From positions 3,335 through 67,334 of the forward strand of contig JACPPR010000008.1 in assembly GCA_016190895.1 (NCBI GenBank): a DNA stretch of 64,000 nt, read 5' to 3'. Position 1 is the first letter of the stretch. Every line of letters starts with the position of its first letter. The stretch comes from Chloroflexota bacterium. GTDB taxonomy: Bacteria > Chloroflexota > Dehalococcoidia > Dehalococcoidales > UBA2162. The notes below the pieces were generated by a model. It was not told the DNA's origin. It ran no database searches and saw only the letters and a list, made by a program, of their open reading frames with translations. Position numbers and translations under genes: made by a program. This document shows positions 19,360 through 52,582 of this stretch, one piece after another.

Positions 19360-19453
19360 CTTGTGCGGGATAGGTTAAGCGCAAGGGGTGTAAAAACTTC
19401 TTTTTACAGGAAAAGCGTTCGACCCGTAACAAACGGGCAAAGGAGAAAAGGCT

Positions 19454-19699
19454 ATGATGATGACAATCAAGTGCCCCAAGTGCGGTGTGGAGGGGAAGAT
19501 GTCTCTCATCGAACGGAATTATAAAGGCCCCTACAAGTGCTGGAGCTGCCGGGAATTGTTCACCATCGATATAGAGAGTAACGTGGTGGTTTCCTGCCAG
19601 CCTCTAAGCCAGGAAGAATACGAAAAAGCGCACCCGCCGAAACCGACCATCGATATGAATGTCGGGAATGCCAGAAATCTTGGCGGCAGACGCTACTAG
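19454..19699 (+). CDS. Small zinc-ribbon protein
   Basis: 81 aa. CPKCG...CWSC pairs. Confidence 0.5.
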   Translation: MMMTIKCPKCGVEGKMSLIERNYKGPYKCWSCRELFTIDIESNVVVSCQPLSQEEYEKAHPPKPTIDMNVGNARNLGGRRY

Positions 19700-20479: not shown

Positions 20480-21265
20480 ATGGAAAAAGTTCCGCAGCGA
20501 ATCGTGTCTCTTGCCCCAAGTAATACTGAAATACTTTTTGCCTTAGGTCTGGGCGACAAGGTGGTAGGTGTTACCAGCTACTGTAATTACCCGGAAGAGG
20601 CGAAAAAGAGGGAAATCATAGGTGGTTTTGCTAATCCAAATCTTGAGAAAGTGATTGCTTTAAGACCAGACCTCATTCTAGCCTTCGGTGATTTGCAGAA
20701 GCCGTTGGTTCGTGAATTTAAAGAAAGGGGGCAAACGGTCTTCTGGACTTACCCGCATACTGTTGATGAGATTCTGGAGTCTTTCGAGAGAATCGGAGAA
20801 CTCACCGGCAAGGAAGCCGCTGCCCGACAATTAAGAAAGGATGTAGAAAAAAGGATTGAGACAGTGCAGGGAAGAGTCAAAAATATTCCCGAGCAAGAAA
20901 GGCCTACAGTATTTAGGGTACATTCAGGCCGCCCCCTTGGAACTATAGGCGGCCATGCTTTCCAGACGGGAGTGTACCGGCTTGCCGGGGGAAGGAATAT
21001 CTTTGCCGACACCAAGAAAGACTATTTTGAAGTCGACCTCGAAACCTTACTTAAGCTCGAGCCTGACATAATCGTTGTTGCCGGAGGGAACGAGATAGAA
21101 GCCAAAGCGAGGATAAGAAGTCTGGAGGGATTGGAAAATCTACACGCAATAAAGACGGGCAGAATAGTTGTCATCCCCGCCGAGCTAATCTGCCAAGCTG
21201 GTCCCCGTTTGGGCTTAGGGATTGAAAGGTTGGCTAGAGAATTCCACCCTGAGCGATTCCAGTAG
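20480..21265 (+). CDS. BtuF-like corrinoid/siderophore-type substrate-binding protein lacking any signal peptide
   Basis: 261 aa. It starts directly with the mature-domain motif RIVSLAPSNTEILFALG. The upstream sequence is the riboswitch terminator, so no longer ORF is possible. Confidence 0.8.
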   Translation: MEKVPQRIVSLAPSNTEILFALGLGDKVVGVTSYCNYPEEAKKREIIGGFANPNLEKVIALRPDLILAFGDLQKPLVREFKERGQTVFWTYPHTVDEILESFERIGELTGKEAAARQLRKDVEKRIETVQGRVKNIPEQERPTVFRVHSGRPLGTIGGHAFQTGVYRLAGGRNIFADTKKDYFEVDLETLLKLEPDIIVVAGGNEIEAKARIRSLEGLENLHAIKTGRIVVIPAELICQAGPRLGLGIERLAREFHPERFQ

Positions 21266-21329
21266 GGTGGATGTGCGAGAAAGCAATTTATTAAAGCCAG
21301 GCTGGCATTAGATTTCAGGAGAGAGAGTT

Positions 21330-22709
21330 TTGAAGGCAATAGTTATCGCCGGGACTGTTAGCGGCGTCGGCAAGACCACGATAACCACCGGGCTGATGGG
21401 GGCTTTGACCCGTCAAAAACTCAAGGTGCAGCCGTTTAAGACCGGGCCCGATTACATCGACCCGACTTATCATACATGGGTAACCGGAGTCGCCTCCCGG
21501 AACCTGGATACCTGGATGCTGTCCCATCAGGCGGTCGTTGAGCTATTCACACGTGCCGTGCAGGGCAAAGATATCGCCGTTATCGAAGGGGTGATGGGAC
21601 TCTATGACGGACGCTCCTCAAAAAGCGATGAGGCCAGCACGGCCGAGTTAGCCAAGCTGCTCGGTGTGCCGGTGCTGCTGGTAGTGGATTGCGGGAAAGG
21701 GGCGCGGAGCGTGGCGGCAACGGTTGCCGGGTACAAAGCCTTCGACCCGTCTCTCCATCTGGGCGGGGTTATCCTCAATGGCATCGGCAGCCCGGGGCAT
21801 CTCGAATTTTGTCAGGAAGCGATAGAACATTATACCGGCGTTAAGGTGCTGGGTCATCTGCCCCGCCGGGATGACCTCACGCTTCCGGAAAGGCACCTAG
21901 GCTTGATTCCGACAGTGGAAAGCCAAGCGAGCCAGGAGTTCCTGGAGCGCCTGATAGCTCAATGCGAAGCTACCTTCGATATTCCTGAGATATTGCGCGT
22001 GTCGGAGCAGGCAGCGGTTCGGGAAGCCGGGCCGTCGCTGTTTCCTCGTGTCAAGAAGCCGCCGGTAGTGAGCATCGGGGTGGCAAGAGACAAAGCTTTC
22101 AGTTTTTACTACGAGGACAGCCTGGACTTGTTGGAGGCTTGGGGGGCCGAAATAGCGCCTTTCAGTCCCCTAGAGGATACCGGTTTGCCCGAGGGTGTCT
22201 CCGGCATCTATATCGGGGGCGGCTTCCCCGAGTTGTACGCTGAGCAGCTAGCTACCAACATACCTATGAAAAACGCCGTTATCGCCGCAGTTAAGCGAGG
22301 GATGCCTGTCTATGCGGAGTGCGGCGGCCTGATGTACCTGGGTGAAAGTATCAGCGACCTGAAGGGGAAAGAGCATTCGATGGTAGGCGCCATACCCGTT
22401 TCCACCCGAATCGATAAGCCACGGCTTAGTTTAGGCTACCGGACCGTTCAGGCTCTCGCCGATGGCCCGGTCTTGCGCCAAGGGGAGATTGCCCGCGGCC
22501 ACGAGTTTCACTGGTCGGTGCTGCAGGCCAGCGCCGGCTCGCCAAACGCGTACCGGATTACAGATAGAGGCGAAAGCATCGAGGGGTTCCAGCAAGGCAA
22601 TCTGCTGGCTTCCTATATTCACTTTCATTTGGGCGCTTTACCCTCGATGACAGGACGCTTGATAGACTGCTGTCTCAAGTTCAGGGAAATGAGAAATTCA
22701 TCGTTGTGA
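21330..22709 (+). CDS. cbiA: Cobyrinate a,c-diamide synthase
   Basis: 459 aa with a TTG start after CAGGAGAGAGAG. P-loop GTVSGVGKT, a GPDYIDP motif and a C-terminal GATase (ECGGLMYL). Confidence 0.88.
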   Translation: MKAIVIAGTVSGVGKTTITTGLMGALTRQKLKVQPFKTGPDYIDPTYHTWVTGVASRNLDTWMLSHQAVVELFTRAVQGKDIAVIEGVMGLYDGRSSKSDEASTAELAKLLGVPVLLVVDCGKGARSVAATVAGYKAFDPSLHLGGVILNGIGSPGHLEFCQEAIEHYTGVKVLGHLPRRDDLTLPERHLGLIPTVESQASQEFLERLIAQCEATFDIPEILRVSEQAAVREAGPSLFPRVKKPPVVSIGVARDKAFSFYYEDSLDLLEAWGAEIAPFSPLEDTGLPEGVSGIYIGGGFPELYAEQLATNIPMKNAVIAAVKRGMPVYAECGGLMYLGESISDLKGKEHSMVGAIPVSTRIDKPRLSLGYRTVQALADGPVLRQGEIARGHEFHWSVLQASAGSPNAYRITDRGESIEGFQQGNLLASYIHFHLGALPSMTGRLIDCCLKFREMRNSSL

Positions 22710-22770
22710 GAATGGTTTGGATGAAAGGATGAAAAGGATGAGAAAGGAATTAGTTGGAGGAAGGAAAAGG

Positions 22771-23826
22771 ATGAAGAATGGATTTGGGAAACTGATGGTC
22801 TTTGGTTTGAGTCTGGCTCTCGGATTAAGTCTACTGGCGGGCTGTGCGGCACCGGCCGGGACAGCGCCACAATCACCGGCGCCCGCTGCGCCAGCTACGG
22901 CGACTCCCGCGCCGGCCGTGCCAACTCCTGTGGCGTCGGCTCCGGTGACACCAACCCCAGCCGCACCACCGGCTGTAGCGCCGGCTCCGGTAGCGTCATT
23001 TCCGATGGAGATTACAGACCAACTGGGCAGGGTGGTCACAATAAAGAAAGCTCCGCAGAGAATTATTTCCATCGCACCGAGCGACACTGAGATAATCTTT
23101 GCTCTCGGGCTGGGCGATATGGTAGTCGGCGTCGACCAGTATTCCGATTATCCCGCCGAGGCTAAGACAAAAACTAATCTGGGAGGTTACACTAATCCGA
23201 GCATTGAGAAAATAGTGGCCCTTAACCCTGACCTGATACTGGTAACCCGCGTTCACGAGGCTAAGGTTATCCCCGTGCTGGAATCGATGCACTACCCCGT
23301 GTTGGGACTGGACCCCAAGACAGTCGATGAGGTGCTGACCGCTATTAACCTCGTCGGCAAGATTACCGGCAAGAACCGGGAGGCTGCCGACCTGACGGCC
23401 AGCCTGCAAAAGAGGATTGGCGCGGTGACGGACAAGACGAATAAGCTGAACGAATCCCAACGGCCAAAGACTTTTTACATCGTCTGGCCCGACCCGTTGA
23501 TGTCATCCGGTAATGGTACGTTCCAGGCTGACCTGATTCAAAAGGCCGGAGGCACTAACATTGCGCAAAATCTCGAAGGGTGGAAGACAATCAGCTTAGA
23601 GGCCGTCATCACGGCCAATCCCGAGGTGATGATTGCCGGCAGCATGGCTAATGCGAATACGAATTTGCAGTTCATCAAGACGGAGCCGAGGTTGGCCAAT
23701 ACGGATGCCCGCCGGCTTGGCAAAGTCTATGAGGTGGATGGTAATCTGATTAGCCGCCCCGGGCCGAGGCTGGTGGACGCCCTTGAGGAGTTTGCCAGGA
23801 CGCTCCACCCGGAGCTGTTTAAGTAG
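22771..23826 (+). CDS. btuF: BtuF-like corrinoid-binding lipoprotein with a long Pro/Ala/Thr linker
   Basis: The ATG at 22771 follows GGAGGAAGGAAAAGG. Lipobox LLAGC, a roughly 55-aa P/A-rich linker, then the RIISIAPSDTEIIFALG domain. The track start is 22717. Confidence 0.85.
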   Translation: MKNGFGKLMVFGLSLALGLSLLAGCAAPAGTAPQSPAPAAPATATPAPAVPTPVASAPVTPTPAAPPAVAPAPVASFPMEITDQLGRVVTIKKAPQRIISIAPSDTEIIFALGLGDMVVGVDQYSDYPAEAKTKTNLGGYTNPSIEKIVALNPDLILVTRVHEAKVIPVLESMHYPVLGLDPKTVDEVLTAINLVGKITGKNREAADLTASLQKRIGAVTDKTNKLNESQRPKTFYIVWPDPLMSSGNGTFQADLIQKAGGTNIAQNLEGWKTISLEAVITANPEVMIAGSMANANTNLQFIKTEPRLANTDARRLGKVYEVDGNLISRPGPRLVDALEEFARTLHPELFK

Positions 23827-47697: not shown

Positions 47698-48300
47698 ATG
47701 GAACTCGATAACGCAATGTATTTTCAGAGCCGTCAGGAATGGCGAGAATGGCTGGAACAGAACCAGGACAAGGCCAAAGAGGTATGGTTCATTCACTACA
47801 AAAAGGATAGCGGCAAGCCTTCGGTAAGTTATGATGATGCTGTCGAGGAGGCTTTGTGTTTCGGCTGGATCGACGGCTTGATGAAAAAAATCGACGAGGA
47901 AAGATTCGCCAACAGGTTCTCTCCCCGGAAAGCTAAGAGCCGCTGGTCGAAGACAAACAAAGAAAAGGCCGAGAAGCTGATTAATGAAAACAAGATGGCG
48001 CCGGCGGGGCTGGCGAAAATCGAAGAAGCCAGGCAAAGCGGCGCCTGGGATAATGCCTATGCTACCAGAGAGACGCTAGAGATTCCCACCGACCTGAAAG
48101 AGGCTCTATCGGGCAATAAGGAAGCCTGGAATAATTTTCAACGTTTCACTAATTATCAGCGAAACAGCTACATCCACCATGTAAACGATGCCAGAACTCC
48201 CGGAACAAGACAAAGGCGAATCGCCTGGGTAGTCGCCCGCCTCTCAAACCCTGGCGGGCAAGCCCGCATAGCGATGAGCAAGAAGCCAGGAATGATTTAG
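47698..48300 (+). CDS. YdeI/OmdA-family protein (DUF1801-related)
   Basis: 200 aa. FxSxxEWRxWLxxN...GVWL-type N-terminus, EALCFGWIDG, and the C-terminal RRIAWVV pattern. Confidence 0.75.
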   Translation: MELDNAMYFQSRQEWREWLEQNQDKAKEVWFIHYKKDSGKPSVSYDDAVEEALCFGWIDGLMKKIDEERFANRFSPRKAKSRWSKTNKEKAEKLINENKMAPAGLAKIEEARQSGAWDNAYATRETLEIPTDLKEALSGNKEAWNNFQRFTNYQRNSYIHHVNDARTPGTRQRRIAWVVARLSNPGGQARIAMSKKPGMI

Positions 48301-48334
48301 ACGTTAGTCTCGCTGCTGCTAGCTTCGAGGAATG

Positions 48335-48913
48335 TTAAGTCTCTTCCACCATTACCGCAACCCAAATCTCCAGAAACTGGTGCAGAATACGAGCGCTGGC
48401 GCCCCAGATCAGGTCGGTCTTGTAGCTGTAAGAATACGTAGTCACGGTCCGGCCACGCAGGGTCTCGGTCTCCTCGGTCATGCAGCTTTTATTGAGCAGC
48501 GCTGAAATGGGGATTTGGATTATTTGCGCAACCTCCCTCGGGTCGGGCGTAAAGCGATAGGGCCAGGAGATGGCCGCTACAAAGGGAGTAATAATATAGT
48601 TAGAACCGATGGTGGGGAAATCATCGAGTTCGCCGAGCACTTCGACATCTTTAGCCGCCAGCCCGATTTCTTCAGCGCTCTCCCTGAGAGCCGTATTCAG
48701 CAAAGTTTCGTCTTCCTCTTCATAAGCCCCACCGGGGAAAGATATCTCACCCTTGTGCAGCTTCACCCGGTGCGTCCGGGTGGTGAAGATAACATGGTAT
48801 TCCCCGTCTTTGATGAAGATGGGTATCAGGACTGCCGATGGTATCAGGCTGGTATCGAGGTTACGCAGTTTCCGATGCCGTGAGAGAGCCTGCTGCAGTT
48901 TTTCTATATTCAT
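48335..48913 (-). CDS. NUDIX hydrolase, CoA pyrophosphatase-like (NudL type)
   Basis: 192 aa. Nudix box ISFPGGAYEEEDETLLNTALRESAEEIGL and an upstream SAVLIP motif typical of the CoA-ase subgroup. Confidence 0.75.
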   Translation of the reverse strand: MNIEKLQQALSRHRKLRNLDTSLIPSAVLIPIFIKDGEYHVIFTTRTHRVKLHKGEISFPGGAYEEEDETLLNTALRESAEEIGLAAKDVEVLGELDDFPTIGSNYIITPFVAAISWPYRFTPDPREVAQIIQIPISALLNKSCMTEETETLRGRTVTTYSYSYKTDLIWGASARILHQFLEIWVAVMVEET

Positions 48914-48927
48914 CTTATCTTATCACC

Positions 48928-49076
48928 GAAATCCAAAGTTCAAAGTCCAAATGTCAAATGAAATTCAAATATCAAAATCCACACCCTGTCATTCCGTGCT
49001 TGACACGGAATCCAGGAATACCTGCCCTCCAGGCTGCTGGCATTCTGGATACCGACTTTCGTCGATATGGCGTAAC
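48928..49076. repeat. Composite: AT-rich CAAA array, then GTCATTCCGTGCTTGACACGGAATCC hairpin, then CTGGATACCGACTTTCGTCGATATGG hairpin
   Basis: Same hairpin pair order as 54391-54460. Sits between elp3 and the NUDIX gene. Confidence 0.8.
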
Positions 49077-49144
49077 CTACAAGACACTTTCTTCTCTTGG
49101 CTCTTGGGCTTGGTTTTACCTTCGCGCTTTGGCATTCGGACTTT

Positions 49145-50527
49145 CTACGTAAGTGCCTTGACCATATAGTCTGCCTGCAAGCGATAGCCGGCTTCGGAAC
49201 GGTAGTATTCGCGGGCGCCCACTCCGCTGAGCACCGACATCCGCTCTGCCTTAAATTCTTCGTTGGCAATCCGCTCGGCTTCGGTGAGCAACGCCTTGCC
49301 CAGCCCTTTGTGCTGGGCAGCTGTTTTGTTTTGCTGTCTCAAGGGCACTTCACTACCGTATATATGCAACTCCCTGATTAACGCCGTTTTGCCATTGGCC
49401 GGTTCGCCCAGCCCGGCAATTTCCCCGGATTGAATCCTCATCCGCAGCAAGCCGAAGAGCGTCTTATCGTCATCTTCAAAAGAAAGGAAGATTTCCGTGC
49501 CGTCAGAGGCCCGGTAATCCGTTCTTGCCAACCGGGGCGGGCCCGGTTTATAGCCGATTCTGACCCGGTGGCCATATTCCCGGCACCGGATACACTGGCA
49601 TTCGGCGCCGGCTGCCTTCATTCTCTCTTTCACCACATCCCGCAAGGAATCCTTCAAGCCACCGACGATGAAATCCGAGGGGATGTCACGCAGCACGCGT
49701 GAAATTCTGACATAGGGAGGCACTATTGCTTTAATATCGGCGACGAGCGCAGTCATTGTTTCGTCCGGATATGGCCGGTAGCGTCCTTCCTGAAACCACC
49801 TTTCCAGTTCGGTACCTTCGACCACCATAGTCGGGTATATTTTCAAGCCGTCCGGCCGGAAGCACTCGTCGCTAAAGAGCATACCGGATAGCGCCAGGTC
49901 TTTCTCAGGCGTCGAGCCGGGCAGCCCCGGCATCCAGTGGTAGTGCACCTTCAAGGCATGCTCCCTGAGCAGGCGGGTGGCTTGAACGACATCCTCTACG
50001 GTGTGTCCCCTTCTGACCAGCCGGTAGATTCCATCATCCAGCATTTGAACGCCAAGCTCCACCCGGGTGGCGCCGAATTCAAGCATTCTATCTATCTGCT
50101 CCTTTTTACACCAGTCGGGGCGGGTCTCGATGCAGAGACCGGTGCAGCGATGCTCGGCTTGCTCATTAAGCTGCTTCGCCTCAGCCAAATCGGCCGACTC
50201 TCGGCCGTTTAAGGCGTCGTAGCAGCCCTTGATAAATTGATACTGGTAGTCTACGGGGTAAGCCAGGAAAGTGCCCCCCATGACTATCAGTTCAATCTTG
50301 TCGGTGGGGTGCCCCATTTGGGAGAGCATCTTCAATCTCAATCTGACCTGCTGCGCCGCGTCGAATTCGCATTGTCTCGCCCGAATCACCGCCGGCGAGC
50401 GGGGGGTATAGCTGCGGGGGGTAGCCGAAAAACTGGGACAATAGACGCACTGCCCCGGGCAATCCAGCGGCCCGGTCATGACAGCTACCGGCGTCACCCC
50501 TGAGATTGTTCTTGTAATTTTTCTCAT
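49145..50527 (-). CDS. elp3: Elp3-type radical SAM / GNAT tRNA wobble-uridine modification enzyme
   Basis: 460 aa. Radical-SAM cysteines CPGQCVYC near the N-terminus and a C-terminal GNAT motif QHKGLGKALLTEAE. The length and architecture match the known bacterial Elp3 of Dehalococcoides. Confidence 0.88.
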   Translation of the reverse strand: MRKITRTISGVTPVAVMTGPLDCPGQCVYCPSFSATPRSYTPRSPAVIRARQCEFDAAQQVRLRLKMLSQMGHPTDKIELIVMGGTFLAYPVDYQYQFIKGCYDALNGRESADLAEAKQLNEQAEHRCTGLCIETRPDWCKKEQIDRMLEFGATRVELGVQMLDDGIYRLVRRGHTVEDVVQATRLLREHALKVHYHWMPGLPGSTPEKDLALSGMLFSDECFRPDGLKIYPTMVVEGTELERWFQEGRYRPYPDETMTALVADIKAIVPPYVRISRVLRDIPSDFIVGGLKDSLRDVVKERMKAAGAECQCIRCREYGHRVRIGYKPGPPRLARTDYRASDGTEIFLSFEDDDKTLFGLLRMRIQSGEIAGLGEPANGKTALIRELHIYGSEVPLRQQNKTAAQHKGLGKALLTEAERIANEEFKAERMSVLSGVGAREYYRSEAGYRLQADYMVKALT

Positions 50528-50555
50528 ACTGTGCTTTTCTGTTGTTAGGTTAACC

Positions 50556-50609
50556 TATCCCCCTGCCCCCTTCCCTTACCAAGGGGAGAGGGACAAAGGG
50601 TGAGGGGTT
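50556..50609. repeat. CCTCTCC/GGAGAGG family hairpin with GGGTGAGGGG flank in the elp3/methyltransferase divergent gap
   Basis: CCCCCTGCCCCCTTCCCTTACCAAGGGGAGAGGGACAAAGGGTGAGGGG. Confidence 0.7.
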
Positions 50610-50631
50610 TACCAACCTATTAATTAATAGA

Positions 50632-51336
50632 TTGGAGTTTAGAAGATTGCGACCTATGCCGACACTAAGAGAAGTATACGATAAGATTGCCCCCGCCCGC
50701 TACAATCTGCGCCACTGGAGCAGGTTCCGGCCTGAGCTTGAGGCGATGGCAGCGAAGTGGCAGCGGGGCCGGCTGCTTAACCTGGGTTGCGGTCACGGCG
50801 CCGATTTTCTGCCCTTCAAGGATGCCTTTGAACTTTACGGGGTAGATTTCTCTTCGACTATGCTCGAACTGTCCCGGAAATACGCCGGGAAATTTGATTT
50901 CACCGCCAATCTGGTGCAGGCCGATGTCAGCCGGCTGCCCTTCTCCAGCGAATCCTTCGATTGGGCAATCTCGATAGCGACCTATCATCATCTGGAAAGC
51001 CAGGAAGCCAGAGAAGGAGCTTTCACCGAGTTGAGGCGGGTTCTGAAGCCGGGTGGGGAGGCTCTTATCACTGTCTGGAACCGCTGGCAGCCCTGGTGGG
51101 GAGGGGGCAGGGGGATGAATACCTTCTGGTTCAGGGGCAAGGAAGGCGCCGTGCCCTGGCAAGCCGGCAATGAGACTCTTTACCGCTATTACTACTTCTT
51201 CTCGTACCCAGAGCTAGAGAAGCTGGCCCGGCAGACCGGCTTTCGGGTGCTCAAGTCTTTCCCGGAAAGGTCTTACCGCTTCCCGGTCAAGTTCTTTTCC
51301 AGGAATATCTGTTTGCTGGTGAAGAAAGCGTTCTAG
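50632..51336 (+). CDS. Class I SAM-dependent methyltransferase with Trm9-like sequence pattern
   Basis: 234 aa (TTG 50632) or 226 aa (ATG 50656). VYDKIAP..Y...W...; SAM motif LLNLGCGHG; FDWAISIATYHHL...R...ELRRVLKPGGEALITVW; VPW; YRYYYFFSYPELEKL. These parallel the yeast Trm9 blocks VYNEIAPHFS, D.GCGNG, FDFAISIAVVHH, GG.ALI..WA and RYYH.F.EGEL. Confidence 0.65.
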   Translation: MEFRRLRPMPTLREVYDKIAPARYNLRHWSRFRPELEAMAAKWQRGRLLNLGCGHGADFLPFKDAFELYGVDFSSTMLELSRKYAGKFDFTANLVQADVSRLPFSSESFDWAISIATYHHLESQEAREGAFTELRRVLKPGGEALITVWNRWQPWWGGGRGMNTFWFRGKEGAVPWQAGNETLYRYYYFFSYPELEKLARQTGFRVLKSFPERSYRFPVKFFSRNICLLVKKAF

Positions 51337-51390
51337 ATATGGTATGCTTATAGCGTAAGCTCGAAACAAAGTTTTAGGGAGGAGTGTTTA

Positions 51391-51873
51391 GTGGATAATA
51401 TCGTGGCGAATCTGCCTTTTATCTTATTAGCCATTGCTATGGTAGTTCTTCAGTATTTCTTGAGAAAACGGCGCGGGCCGGCGGGCACGCAGCAGGAAAT
51501 CGTCCAGAACCTGCTGGCCGAAGCCAGGCTCGACCTCAGGATGGCTGAAGTTTTTGATTTCAGCCCACGGGCGAAAAGGTTTATGACGACAACCTGGCAG
51601 CTTAATAAGAATAAGCTGGATTTTCTGGACAAATCGCTCCAGGACAGTGTATCAAATGCTTTTATGATGGCGGAGGATGTTAATCAGCAGATAGCTGCGG
51701 CTAAGAAGTATAAATCGACCAGTTATCTGGTCAGCGTAGATATAGACAAACTGAAAGGGCTGCTGTCTAAGAGCCAGGAAGGACTGGAGCAGTGGCTTCT
51801 CTTAAAAGTAGGGTCGAAAAACCCTGCGGTGAAAGCCCCCGGTTTGTTCGATGATTTGCTGGGTAAGCGCTAA
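51391..51873 (+). CDS. Hypothetical membrane-anchored protein
   Basis: 160 aa with a GTG start 8 nt after GGGAGGAG. One N-terminal TM helix and a helical soluble part. Confidence 0.5.
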   Translation: MDNIVANLPFILLAIAMVVLQYFLRKRRGPAGTQQEIVQNLLAEARLDLRMAEVFDFSPRAKRFMTTTWQLNKNKLDFLDKSLQDSVSNAFMMAEDVNQQIAAAKKYKSTSYLVSVDIDKLKGLLSKSQEGLEQWLLLKVGSKNPAVKAPGLFDDLLGKR

Positions 51874-51880
51874 AAGAAGC

Positions 51881-52582
51881 TTACTCCGGAAGAATCGTCT
51901 TAGCTGTGATTGCCCGGCGTTTCGAGTAGGCTTCCTTCAGTTGCTGGAAGCGAGCCTGGAATGATTCCGAGGTAATCTTATCCGTGGACATGATTAAGGC
52001 GTCCTCTCGGTTATCTGTGTAATAGCCTCGTCTCACGCCCACCTGGGTGAAACCGTATTTAGAATAGAGCATTTGGGCGCCAGTATTAGAGACGCGCACC
52101 TCCAGGGTTAGGATGCTCGCCTTTAATTTCATCGCCAGCTCTACCGCCGAAATAATTAGCATTTCTCCAATCCCCTGTCTGCGGTAGGCTTCCCGCACTG
52201 CGATACTGGTAATATGGGCCTCATCAGCCATAATCCAGCAGCCGATAAAGCCGATGATGTATTCGTCGTTCGAGGGCGGCACCTGGTCGGAGGAACGGTT
52301 GCGGTCGAAGAGCCGCTTTAATCCGGATATAAACCCTTTGGCAGGCGCGCTGTTTTCCGTGGTGGCAATTTTCTCTTCGTCACAGACTACGCAATAGTGC
52401 GCCGTCTGGTTCCGCAGTTCATTCAGGTAGTTAGGCGGCGGCCATTGCGTAGGGAAGGCTTCGCGGTCGATATCCGTAACCTGTTCGATGTCTTCCTTAC
52501 ACATCCGGCGCAAATAGTAAGCCACGTTCCAAGTCTCCTGTAATTCCTTTAAAATTATTGTAGCATATTCAAAAGTCAACAT
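51881..52582 (-). CDS. rimI: GNAT N-acetyltransferase, RimI-like (ribosomal-protein-alanine acetyltransferase)
   Basis: GNAT motif A RRQGIGEMLI. The RimI-like N-terminus appears from the alternative start at 52504 (MCKEDIEQVTDIDREAFP). There is an internal roughly 35-aa insertion. Confidence 0.7.
   Translation of the reverse strand: MLTFEYATIILKELQETWNVAYYLRRMCKEDIEQVTDIDREAFPTQWPPPNYLNELRNQTAHYCVVCDEEKIATTENSAPAKGFISGLKRLFDRNRSSDQVPPSNDEYIIGFIGCWIMADEAHITSIAVREAYRRQGIGEMLIISAVELAMKLKASILTLEVRVSNTGAQMLYSKYGFTQVGVRRGYYTDNREDALIMSTDKITSESFQARFQQLKEAYSKRRAITAKTILPE

Follow-up and report, generated by a model that had tools for sequence, protein, structure and literature searches.

In a 64,000-nt stretch of DNA from a Chloroflexota bacterium of the Dehalococcoidales (GenBank assembly GCA_016190895.1, contig JACPPR010000008.1), referred to here in its full length as the window, two divergently oriented genes encode Elp3 and a Trm9-type class I S-adenosylmethionine (SAM) methyltransferase, and there is good reason to believe that together they form a conserved unit which modifies the wobble uridine of tRNA in two steps, making 5-carboxymethyluridine (cm5U) and then 5-methoxycarbonylmethyluridine at position 34 (mcm5U34). 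In the first step of the proposed pathway, the radical-SAM domain of Elp3 and its acetyl-CoA-binding GNAT domain would carboxymethylate U34 at C5, drawing on SAM and acetyl-CoA, to yield cm5U. In the second, the methyltransferase, as a putative prokaryotic orthologue of Trm9 and of the ALKBH8 methyltransferase domain (ALKBH8-MT), would use SAM to methyl-esterify the carboxylate of cm5U34, and a thiolase encoded elsewhere might turn the resulting mcm5U34 into its 2-thio derivative (mcm5s2U). We infer the mcm5U34 step from the conjunction of orthology-grade similarity to Trm9, conserved catalytic residues and conserved linkage to Elp3. An original prediction, made from the letters of this DNA, had put forward the same two-step pathway with a NUDIX gene as one of its parts; a Trm9-like methyltransferase in conserved linkage with Elp3 is borne out in silico, and the NUDIX gene drops out of the unit. 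The locus comprises the following features, in window coordinates:

49145-50527, minus strand: elp3, 460 aa, a predicted radical-SAM/GNAT tRNA U34 carboxymethylating enzyme with an N-terminus as short as that of Dehalococcoides mccartyi Elp3
50438-50461, minus strand: codons of the Elp3 radical-SAM cluster motif, C23-x3-C27-x2-C30 (CPGQCVYC), placed by translation and invariant alignment columns
50528-50655, no strand: divergent intergenic region between elp3 and the methyltransferase ATG
50656-51336, plus strand: Trm9-type class I SAM methyltransferase, 226 aa from the ATG
50632-51336, plus strand: the same methyltransferase from an alternative TTG start, 234 aa
48335-48913, minus strand: NUDIX gene, 192 aa, CoA-pyrophosphatase-like

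Both open reading frames (ORFs) of the divergent pair are present as originally described, and the spacing first given for them, exactly 104 nt (50528-50631), is correct if the TTG start is used. Homologues of the methyltransferase align from the ATG at 50656, which is also where the NCBI protein MBI2849647.1 (P0001 among the homologues; 226 aa, 100% identical to the window methyltransferase) begins, and the gap to elp3 is hence more likely 128 nt. The deposited label of that protein says only 'class I SAM-dependent methyltransferase [Chloroflexota bacterium]'.

Archaeal and eukaryotic Elp3 are known to convert U34 to cm5U by carboxymethylation at C5, and the D. mccartyi enzyme (DmcElp3) is reported to carry out a tRNA-triggered hydrolysis of acetyl-CoA, with published structures. 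The gene at 49145-50527 is, from its profile and structure matches, certain to be an elp3. Its product scores 571 bits against TIGR01211 over residues 2-459 (NCBIfam; cut-off 350), contains the Pfam domains Radical_SAM, Radical_SAM_C and Acetyltransf_1 (GNAT), and matches DmcElp3 (PDB 5L7J; further structures 5L7L and 6IA6) with 690 bits across residues 1-459, having a nearly identical architecture and the same short N-terminus. In an alignment of nine diverse Elp3 sequences (A2), the Fe-S cysteines C23, C27 and C30 are unchanged, and so are K77, K193, E386 and Y441, the acetyl-CoA pocket residues named for the D. mccartyi enzyme (PMC6367351). The Dehalococcoides protein has been called 'a rare example of bacterial Elp3s' (PMC6367351), and the rarity of bacterial Elp3 invoked in the original prediction agrees with the literature (PMC6367351; PMC7663514). 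Accessible work on DmcElp3 treats the enzyme alone and does not discuss a Trm9 partner gene. Among relatives of the window locus, two carry broken copies of Elp3 that could be pseudogenes or assembly errors: the one in L005 (4848-6005) is seemingly interrupted, matching residues 1-86 and 195-459 only, and the one in L059 (581-1957) is split into two ORFs.

Pfam recognizes the methyltransferase only as a generic class I enzyme (Methyltransf_11/25), with a weak match to Ubie_methyltran (31 bits). The more specific NCBIfam models, with UbiE/MenG, BioC and ArsM among them, all fall far short of their cut-offs (20-44 bits for these, where 103-420 would be required) and align with the SAM-binding core only, and the two UbiE/MenG models leave the protein outside their families (TIGR01934, 43.8 bits vs. 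158; PRK00216, 42.3 bits vs. 216). An exhaustive homologue search with a threshold of E<=1e-10 yielded 1378 cluster representatives, a large part of them matched over nearly the entire query, and the family profile used here (A1) is an alignment of 141 methyltransferase sequences, in which A12, L41, G44, C45, D64, S66, P95, F101, H111, E125, R128, W141, W168, R177, E186 and N217 are nearly invariant. Searched against the PDB, this profile finds Yarrowia Trm9 (5CM2_Z) as its top match, with 118 bits over profile positions 33-231 of 241 and chain residues 3-197 of 205; the runner-up is a generic class I methyltransferase at 111 bits, and 5CM2_Z is the only solved relative aligned along the whole length of the profile. 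In the single-sequence PDB search, 5CM2_Z comes third and is the sole match aligned through the C-terminal VPW...RYY region (residues 49-213). A direct hhalign comparison relates the family profile to Trm9 with 99.9% probability over 182 columns, and the window protein itself is ~28% identical to Yarrowia Trm9.

The predicted structure points in the same direction. An AlphaFold (AF2) model built on the 141-sequence alignment reaches a predicted local distance difference test score (pLDDT) of 94.4 and a predicted template modelling score (pTM) of 0.91, and was used instead of the model obtained from the single sequence (pLDDT 36). Its fold is of the Trm9 type, and Trm9, ranked second in a Foldseek search with this model, has the lowest root-mean-square deviation (2.6 Å) of the 50 matches listed and also leads them in target template modelling score (TMt, 0.83) and in identity (23%). 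PDB entry 6F5Z was rejected as Trm9 of Haloferax volcanii, being HVO_0019 according to its Foldseek description and to PMC6144793. Confidence in the model is low at one place only, a lineage-specific nine-residue insertion after W141, WWGGGRGMN (residues 147-155; 51094-51120; pLDDT <50 at residues 150-152), which few of the 141 family members share. The blocks quoted for the methyltransferase in the original prediction (VYDKIAP, LGCGHG, FDWAISIATYHH, ELRRVLKPGGEALITVW, VPW and YRYYYFFSYPELEKL) can all be read in the translation, and its assignment as Trm9-like and not UbiE-like is upheld by the full-length profile match to 5CM2_Z, the hhalign result, the retention of the residues required in Trm9 and a best UbiE/MenG score of 44 bits vs. 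158. Automatic IMG labels divide between the two names, several homologues being called 'tRNA (uracil-5-)-methyltransferase TRM9' and others 'ubiquinone/menaquinone biosynthesis C-methylase UbiE'. Apart from the methyltransferase, no ORF in the 64 kb of the window has a match to the family profile or to Yarrowia Trm9, which argues that the pairing with elp3 is not a matter of chance. Judged by these similarities, the methyltransferase is predicted to be a tRNA (carboxymethyluridine34-5-O)-methyltransferase.

The residues on which Trm9 activity depends have been mapped in the yeast enzyme (ScTrm9), in which D72A, H116A, W145A and W168A are inactive and R29A, R241A, Y243A and N271A retain no more than 10% of activity (PMC4678810). 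Residues R19, D64, H111, H112, W141, W168, R177, Y179 and N217 of the window protein correspond to ScTrm9 R29, D72, H115, H116, W145, W168, R241, Y243 and N271, so that all eight residues required by mutagenesis (R29, D72, H116, W145, W168, R241, Y243 and N271) are identical in the two enzymes, including the carboxylate-positioning R29, H116 and R241 (Sc numbering). The active-site residues are identical in Yarrowia (Yl) Trm9 as well, and the required residues are mostly at least 90% conserved across the family; the SAM-binding acidic residue D64, which aligns with Yl D83 and Sc D72, is kept in 139 of the 141 sequences. At the interface with Trm112, where mutation of ScTrm9 N89, L91 or F105 breaks the complex, the window protein has the conservatively related N85, V87 and F101 (the numbering was verified by Yl E100, V102 and F116, which fall on E, V and F).

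Linkage between the two genes is conserved across the Dehalococcoidia and into archaea. A scan of species genomes with narrow methyltransferase patterns returned five loci, four of them having upstream sequence, and Elp3 is the divergent neighbour in all four of these assessable loci (L001, L003, L004 and L005), which come from GTDB species genomes of Dehalococcoidales, Dehalococcoidaceae, Chloroflexi and 'Chloroflexia'. The same divergent arrangement is seen beside a 45%-identical homologue (L006) and beside P0051 (L007/L008), among flanking genes that are otherwise unrelated, and homologues of 32-39% identity have Elp3 1-3 kb away, on contigs with GatD/GatE, deoxyhypusine synthase and an archaeal-type prolyl-tRNA synthetase. 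Elp3 linkage was found in five of the eight family members examined individually; at the loci of P0172 (L012) and P0264 (L097) there is no Elp3 within the sequence present. Metagenomes were scanned by Elp3 alignment, and the resulting 80 loci were screened with hidden Markov models of both families, loci with at least 900 nt of upstream sequence being taken as assessable. They fall into two tiers:

Elp3 at least 60% identical to that of the window (close tier): 38 assessable loci, 35 with the methyltransferase, 33 divergent within 600 nt at a median gap of ~90 nt
Elp3 45-52% identical to that of the window (distant tier): 20 assessable loci, 10 with the methyltransferase, within 3.6 kb and at a median distance of ~1 kb

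Family members score 184-321 bits in this screen, vs. at most 109 bits for the other methyltransferases of the scanned loci. The co-occurrence of elp3 and this methyltransferase in other genomes, which the original prediction had proposed as a test, is hence observed in 4/4 species genomes, 35/38 close loci and 10/20 distant loci. Within the close tier, Elp3 is 60-77% and the methyltransferase 49-67% identical to the window copy. Over 58 loci, the identities of both proteins to their window counterparts co-vary tightly (Spearman 0.91, n=58), a correlation that fits co-inheritance, although any two vertically inherited genes would show one. A linkage that outlives the full turnover of flanking genes and spans bacteria to archaea is the pattern expected of consecutive steps in a pathway.

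The distant tier is apparently archaeal, an assignment based on name fragments ('[Nan...' and '[arc...') and on the marker genes GatD/E and deoxyhypusine synthase in L010 and L014. For one of its loci (L073), the nearest named Elp3 relatives include metagenome-assembled genomes of Nanoarchaeota and of an 'archaeon', and the Elp3 of these relatives is also short (~450 aa). In L072, L073 and L080, on contigs whose Elp3 has relatives named Nanoarchaeota or 'archaeon', Elp3 is short at the N-terminus (~450 aa, the Dehalococcoides type) and encoded divergently beside the same methyltransferase, a hint that the bacterial pair and the pairs of DPANN-type archaea may be of recent common origin. A fuller scenario, in which the Dehalococcoidia obtained an Elp3-Trm9 cassette in a single transfer from a DPANN-like archaeon and make mcm5(s2)U34 with it, perhaps in replacement of MnmE/MnmG, with Trm9 acting alone or with the bacterial Trm112 homologue COG2835, is possible and can be put forward tentatively, being less probable than the two-step unit itself.

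Several points weigh against a complete cm5U to mcm5U pathway at this locus. Trm9 of eukaryotes and archaea requires Trm112, and a search of the window and of the surroundings of the pair in related loci brought up no gene resembling Trm112. The one candidate was the only small ORF of the window with a CPxC...CxxC zinc ribbon:

19430-19696, plus strand: zinc-ribbon ORF CPKC...CWSC, 89 aa from stop to stop, with sub-threshold Pfam matches only, none of them Trm112p

It was rejected for want of a match to Trm112p (PF03966). A motif scan of 98 loci likewise found nothing Trm112-like, the scan being a weak one whose regular expression demands Cys/Asp ligands that Trm112 of H. volcanii lacks. The window methyltransferase may need no partner, or its partner may be a bacterial Trm112 homologue encoded away from the pair. 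In the PDB searches, moreover, a modest margin separates Trm9 from generic class I methyltransferases (118 vs. 111 bits with the profile, and third and second rank in the single-sequence and Foldseek searches, respectively). In addition, two WecG-fused homologues, P0210 and P0247, keep all of the 'Trm9' catalytic residues, and P0210 (L096, 6417-7895) has no Elp3 within 6 kb, so that this set of residues marks a Trm9-like subfamily and is not proof of cm5U specificity. The methyltransferase is absent from the available sequence of 10 of the 20 distant loci and of three close ones (L019, L021 and L048); in these three, an inserted gene occupies the position upstream of elp3, and the contig breaks off at ~1.5 kb on that side. 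On the enzymatic side, DmcElp3, with its short N-terminus, binds tRNA with lowered affinity and is only very weakly active in vitro (PMC7663514), and a 2020 review reports neither biochemical nor nucleoside data for this clade, direct evidence of xcm5U derivatives being lacking for Elp3-bearing bacteria (PMC7663514). With respect to the fused proteins, P0210 and P0247 join the Trm9-like methyltransferase domain to a WecG/TagA glycosyltransferase domain, and the P0210 contig carries type IV pilin-like genes; this seems to be a sister group of Trm9-like enzymes, as yet unexplained.

The strongest competing explanation is that the methyltransferase is a Trm9-fold paralogue acting on some other carboxylate or nucleophile, for example a further wobble substituent of tRNA such as cmo5U (uridine 5-oxyacetic acid), the substrate type of CmoM, or a molecule other than tRNA, and that it stands next to elp3 through common regulation or inheritance and not as the next chemical step. 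We consider this unlikely. The WecG-fused homologues with every 'Trm9' residue, P0210 without Elp3 within 6 kb, the two loci in which Elp3 is missing from the sequence present (L012 and L097) and the detectable relationship to CmoM (8JOZ) and to many small-molecule O- and N-methyltransferases would all be at home under such an explanation, but the CmoM alignment covers just the Rossmann core and scores 58 bits, against 118 bits at full length for Trm9, the three carboxylate-positioning residues are all conserved, and the linkage with Elp3 persists from bacteria to archaea while the flanking genes turn over. Somewhat less likely still is that the two enzymes act on the same U34 and that something other than plain mcm5U results, perhaps because the ester is made en route to an amide or other derivative, a course debated for 5-carbamoylmethyluridine (ncm5U) in yeast, or because Elp3 is nearly inactive and the module a decaying relic of an archaeal transfer. 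The short N-terminus, lowered tRNA affinity and very weak in vitro activity of DmcElp3 (PMC7663514) could be accommodated in this way, as could the interrupted Elp3 of L005, the split one of L059 and the accumulation of ncm5U in yeast trm9 mutants, which, as cited in PMC6367351, points to unresolved steps of the pathway. Both genes are nonetheless intact and constrained over many lineages, at the identities given above and with their catalytic residues kept, and the two broken copies, from metagenome assemblies, may be assembly errors. Lastly, an ordinary UbiE/MenG-type quinone methyltransferase, or another small-molecule class I enzyme, standing beside elp3 by chance, as the 31-bit Pfam match and some of the IMG labels might suggest, is effectively refuted by UbiE/MenG, BioC and ArsM scores far below their cut-offs and confined to the SAM-binding core, and by 35 conserved pairings in 38 close loci, which chance adjacency does not explain.

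Seen as a cm5U34-methylating partner of Elp3, the window protein resembles yeast Trm9 and the methyltransferase domain of ALKBH8 in its class I fold with an extra β-hairpin bearing VPW and RYY, in its full-length profile match to the Yarrowia enzyme, in the identity of the required residues and in being tied to an Elp3 that would make its substrate. It differs from these Trm112-dependent enzymes in being bacterial and ~28% identical, in its WWGGGRGMN loop, in having no Trm112 gene nearby and in an activity that is so far a prediction. The closest known parallel lies in archaea, where clustering of Elp3 and Trm9 was noted for Sulfolobus solfataricus in 2008 (Grosjean et al., PMC2584109) and the Trm9-Trm112 complex of H. 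volcanii (HVO_1032) was studied in 2018 (PMC6144793). As in archaea, Elp3 stands alone in the window, lacking Elp1, 2 and 4-6, and near a Trm9-family methyltransferase, an arrangement found here also in archaeal-type contigs (L010, L014, L072, L073 and L080); the window differs in its Chloroflexota host and in the tightness of the divergent pair, most archaeal loci being looser, with a median distance of ~1 kb. The bacterial MnmE/MnmG(/MnmC) pathway to xm5U34 serves the same tRNA position and the same decoding purpose through unrelated chemistry and enzymes. CmoM of E. coli (PDB 8JOZ), likewise of class I, methyl-esterifies the carboxylate of a modified wobble uridine, cmo5U, and is a distant relative of the window family whose similarity (58 bits) is restricted to profile positions 12-159 and falls short of full length.

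The window pair is therefore best described as a bacterial case of a known pathway, partly anticipated by IMG automatic annotation, and not as a system of a new type. In a survey of modified nucleosides, cm5U and mcm5U are listed under archaea and eukaryotes alone (PMC7694415), a 2017 review states that homologues of the Trm112-dependent methyltransferases are not detectable in bacteria (PMC5372719), and our literature search found no paper on a bacterial Trm9 or on its pairing with Elp3. The conserved Elp3-Trm9 pair of the Dehalococcoidia constitutes strong genomic evidence for a full cm5U to mcm5U route in a bacterial lineage, and suggests that bacteria probably make mcm5U. The methyltransferase, a small and soluble-looking candidate enzyme (226 aa) with a confident structural model, makes the question directly testable. 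The pair also sharpens two further questions, namely whether Trm112 is dispensable for a Trm9 or whether the bacterial Trm112 at last has a partner, and how the Elp3-Trm9 module moved between archaea and bacteria. If a bacterial Trm9 were to work with the Trm112 homologue COG2835, this would be the first defined role for that widespread bacterial protein.

The intergenic region shared by the two genes presumably holds both promoters, and the genes are probably co-expressed or co-regulated from it. It contains a near-perfect, operator-like 24-nt palindrome (50612-50635, CCAACCTATTAA|TTAATAGATTGG, 11 of 12 pairs), which overlaps the alternative TTG start and lies 20 nt upstream of the ATG. An inverted repeat, imperfect and GC-rich, with 19-nt arms, 74% complementary, around an 8-nt spacer, immediately precedes the start of elp3 (50554-50599) and is single in the window. 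The palindrome was not found in related loci and was rejected as a conserved operator, and the inverted repeat is not conserved either; since, moreover, the spacer between the two genes varies among relatives from overlapping starts to ~540 nt, no conserved regulatory element is proposed. A scan of 48200-51950 for promoter and terminator consensus sequences gave nothing exceeding shuffled expectation, with no sigma-70 consensus match in the intergenic region.

On the elp3 side, the NUDIX gene starts after a 231-nt gap downstream of elp3, on the same strand. The best NCBIfam match of its product is the CoA pyrophosphatase PRK10707 (105 bits, under the 134-bit cut-off), and the translation carries the CoA-type motif IFTTRTHRVKLHKGEISFPGG, which we take to be NuCoA-like. 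Its original description as a CoA-pyrophosphatase-like gene following elp3 on the same strand is accurate, and its inclusion in the modification unit is not: a NUDIX homologue is found in 0/95 related loci, which rules the gene out as a third member. It is an incidental local neighbour, in a position after elp3 that is specific to this genome. Two genes on the methyltransferase side do recur in relatives:

51391-51873, plus strand: unannotated ORF, 160 aa, with no family match; on the methyltransferase side in 7 related loci
51881-52582, minus strand: RimI-type GNAT (TIGR01575, 119 bits) with ~100 extra N-terminal residues; on the methyltransferase side in 13 related loci

Their recurrence is read as ordinary local synteny among relatives. 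The base composition near the elp3-methyltransferase pair resembles that of the remainder of the window, no tRNA genes were found in the 64 kb, and the neighbouring genes are ordinary housekeeping ones (ClpC-like, RadA-like, IspD, IspF, cysteinyl-tRNA synthetase, superoxide dismutase, succinyl-CoA ligase and isoleucyl-tRNA synthetase). Elsewhere in the window, at 20480-23826, two genes for periplasmic binding proteins (Peripla_BP_2) stand on either side of a CobB/CobQ-type amidotransferase gene, a cluster that looks like one for corrinoid uptake or salvage, as expected for Dehalococcoidia-like organisms.

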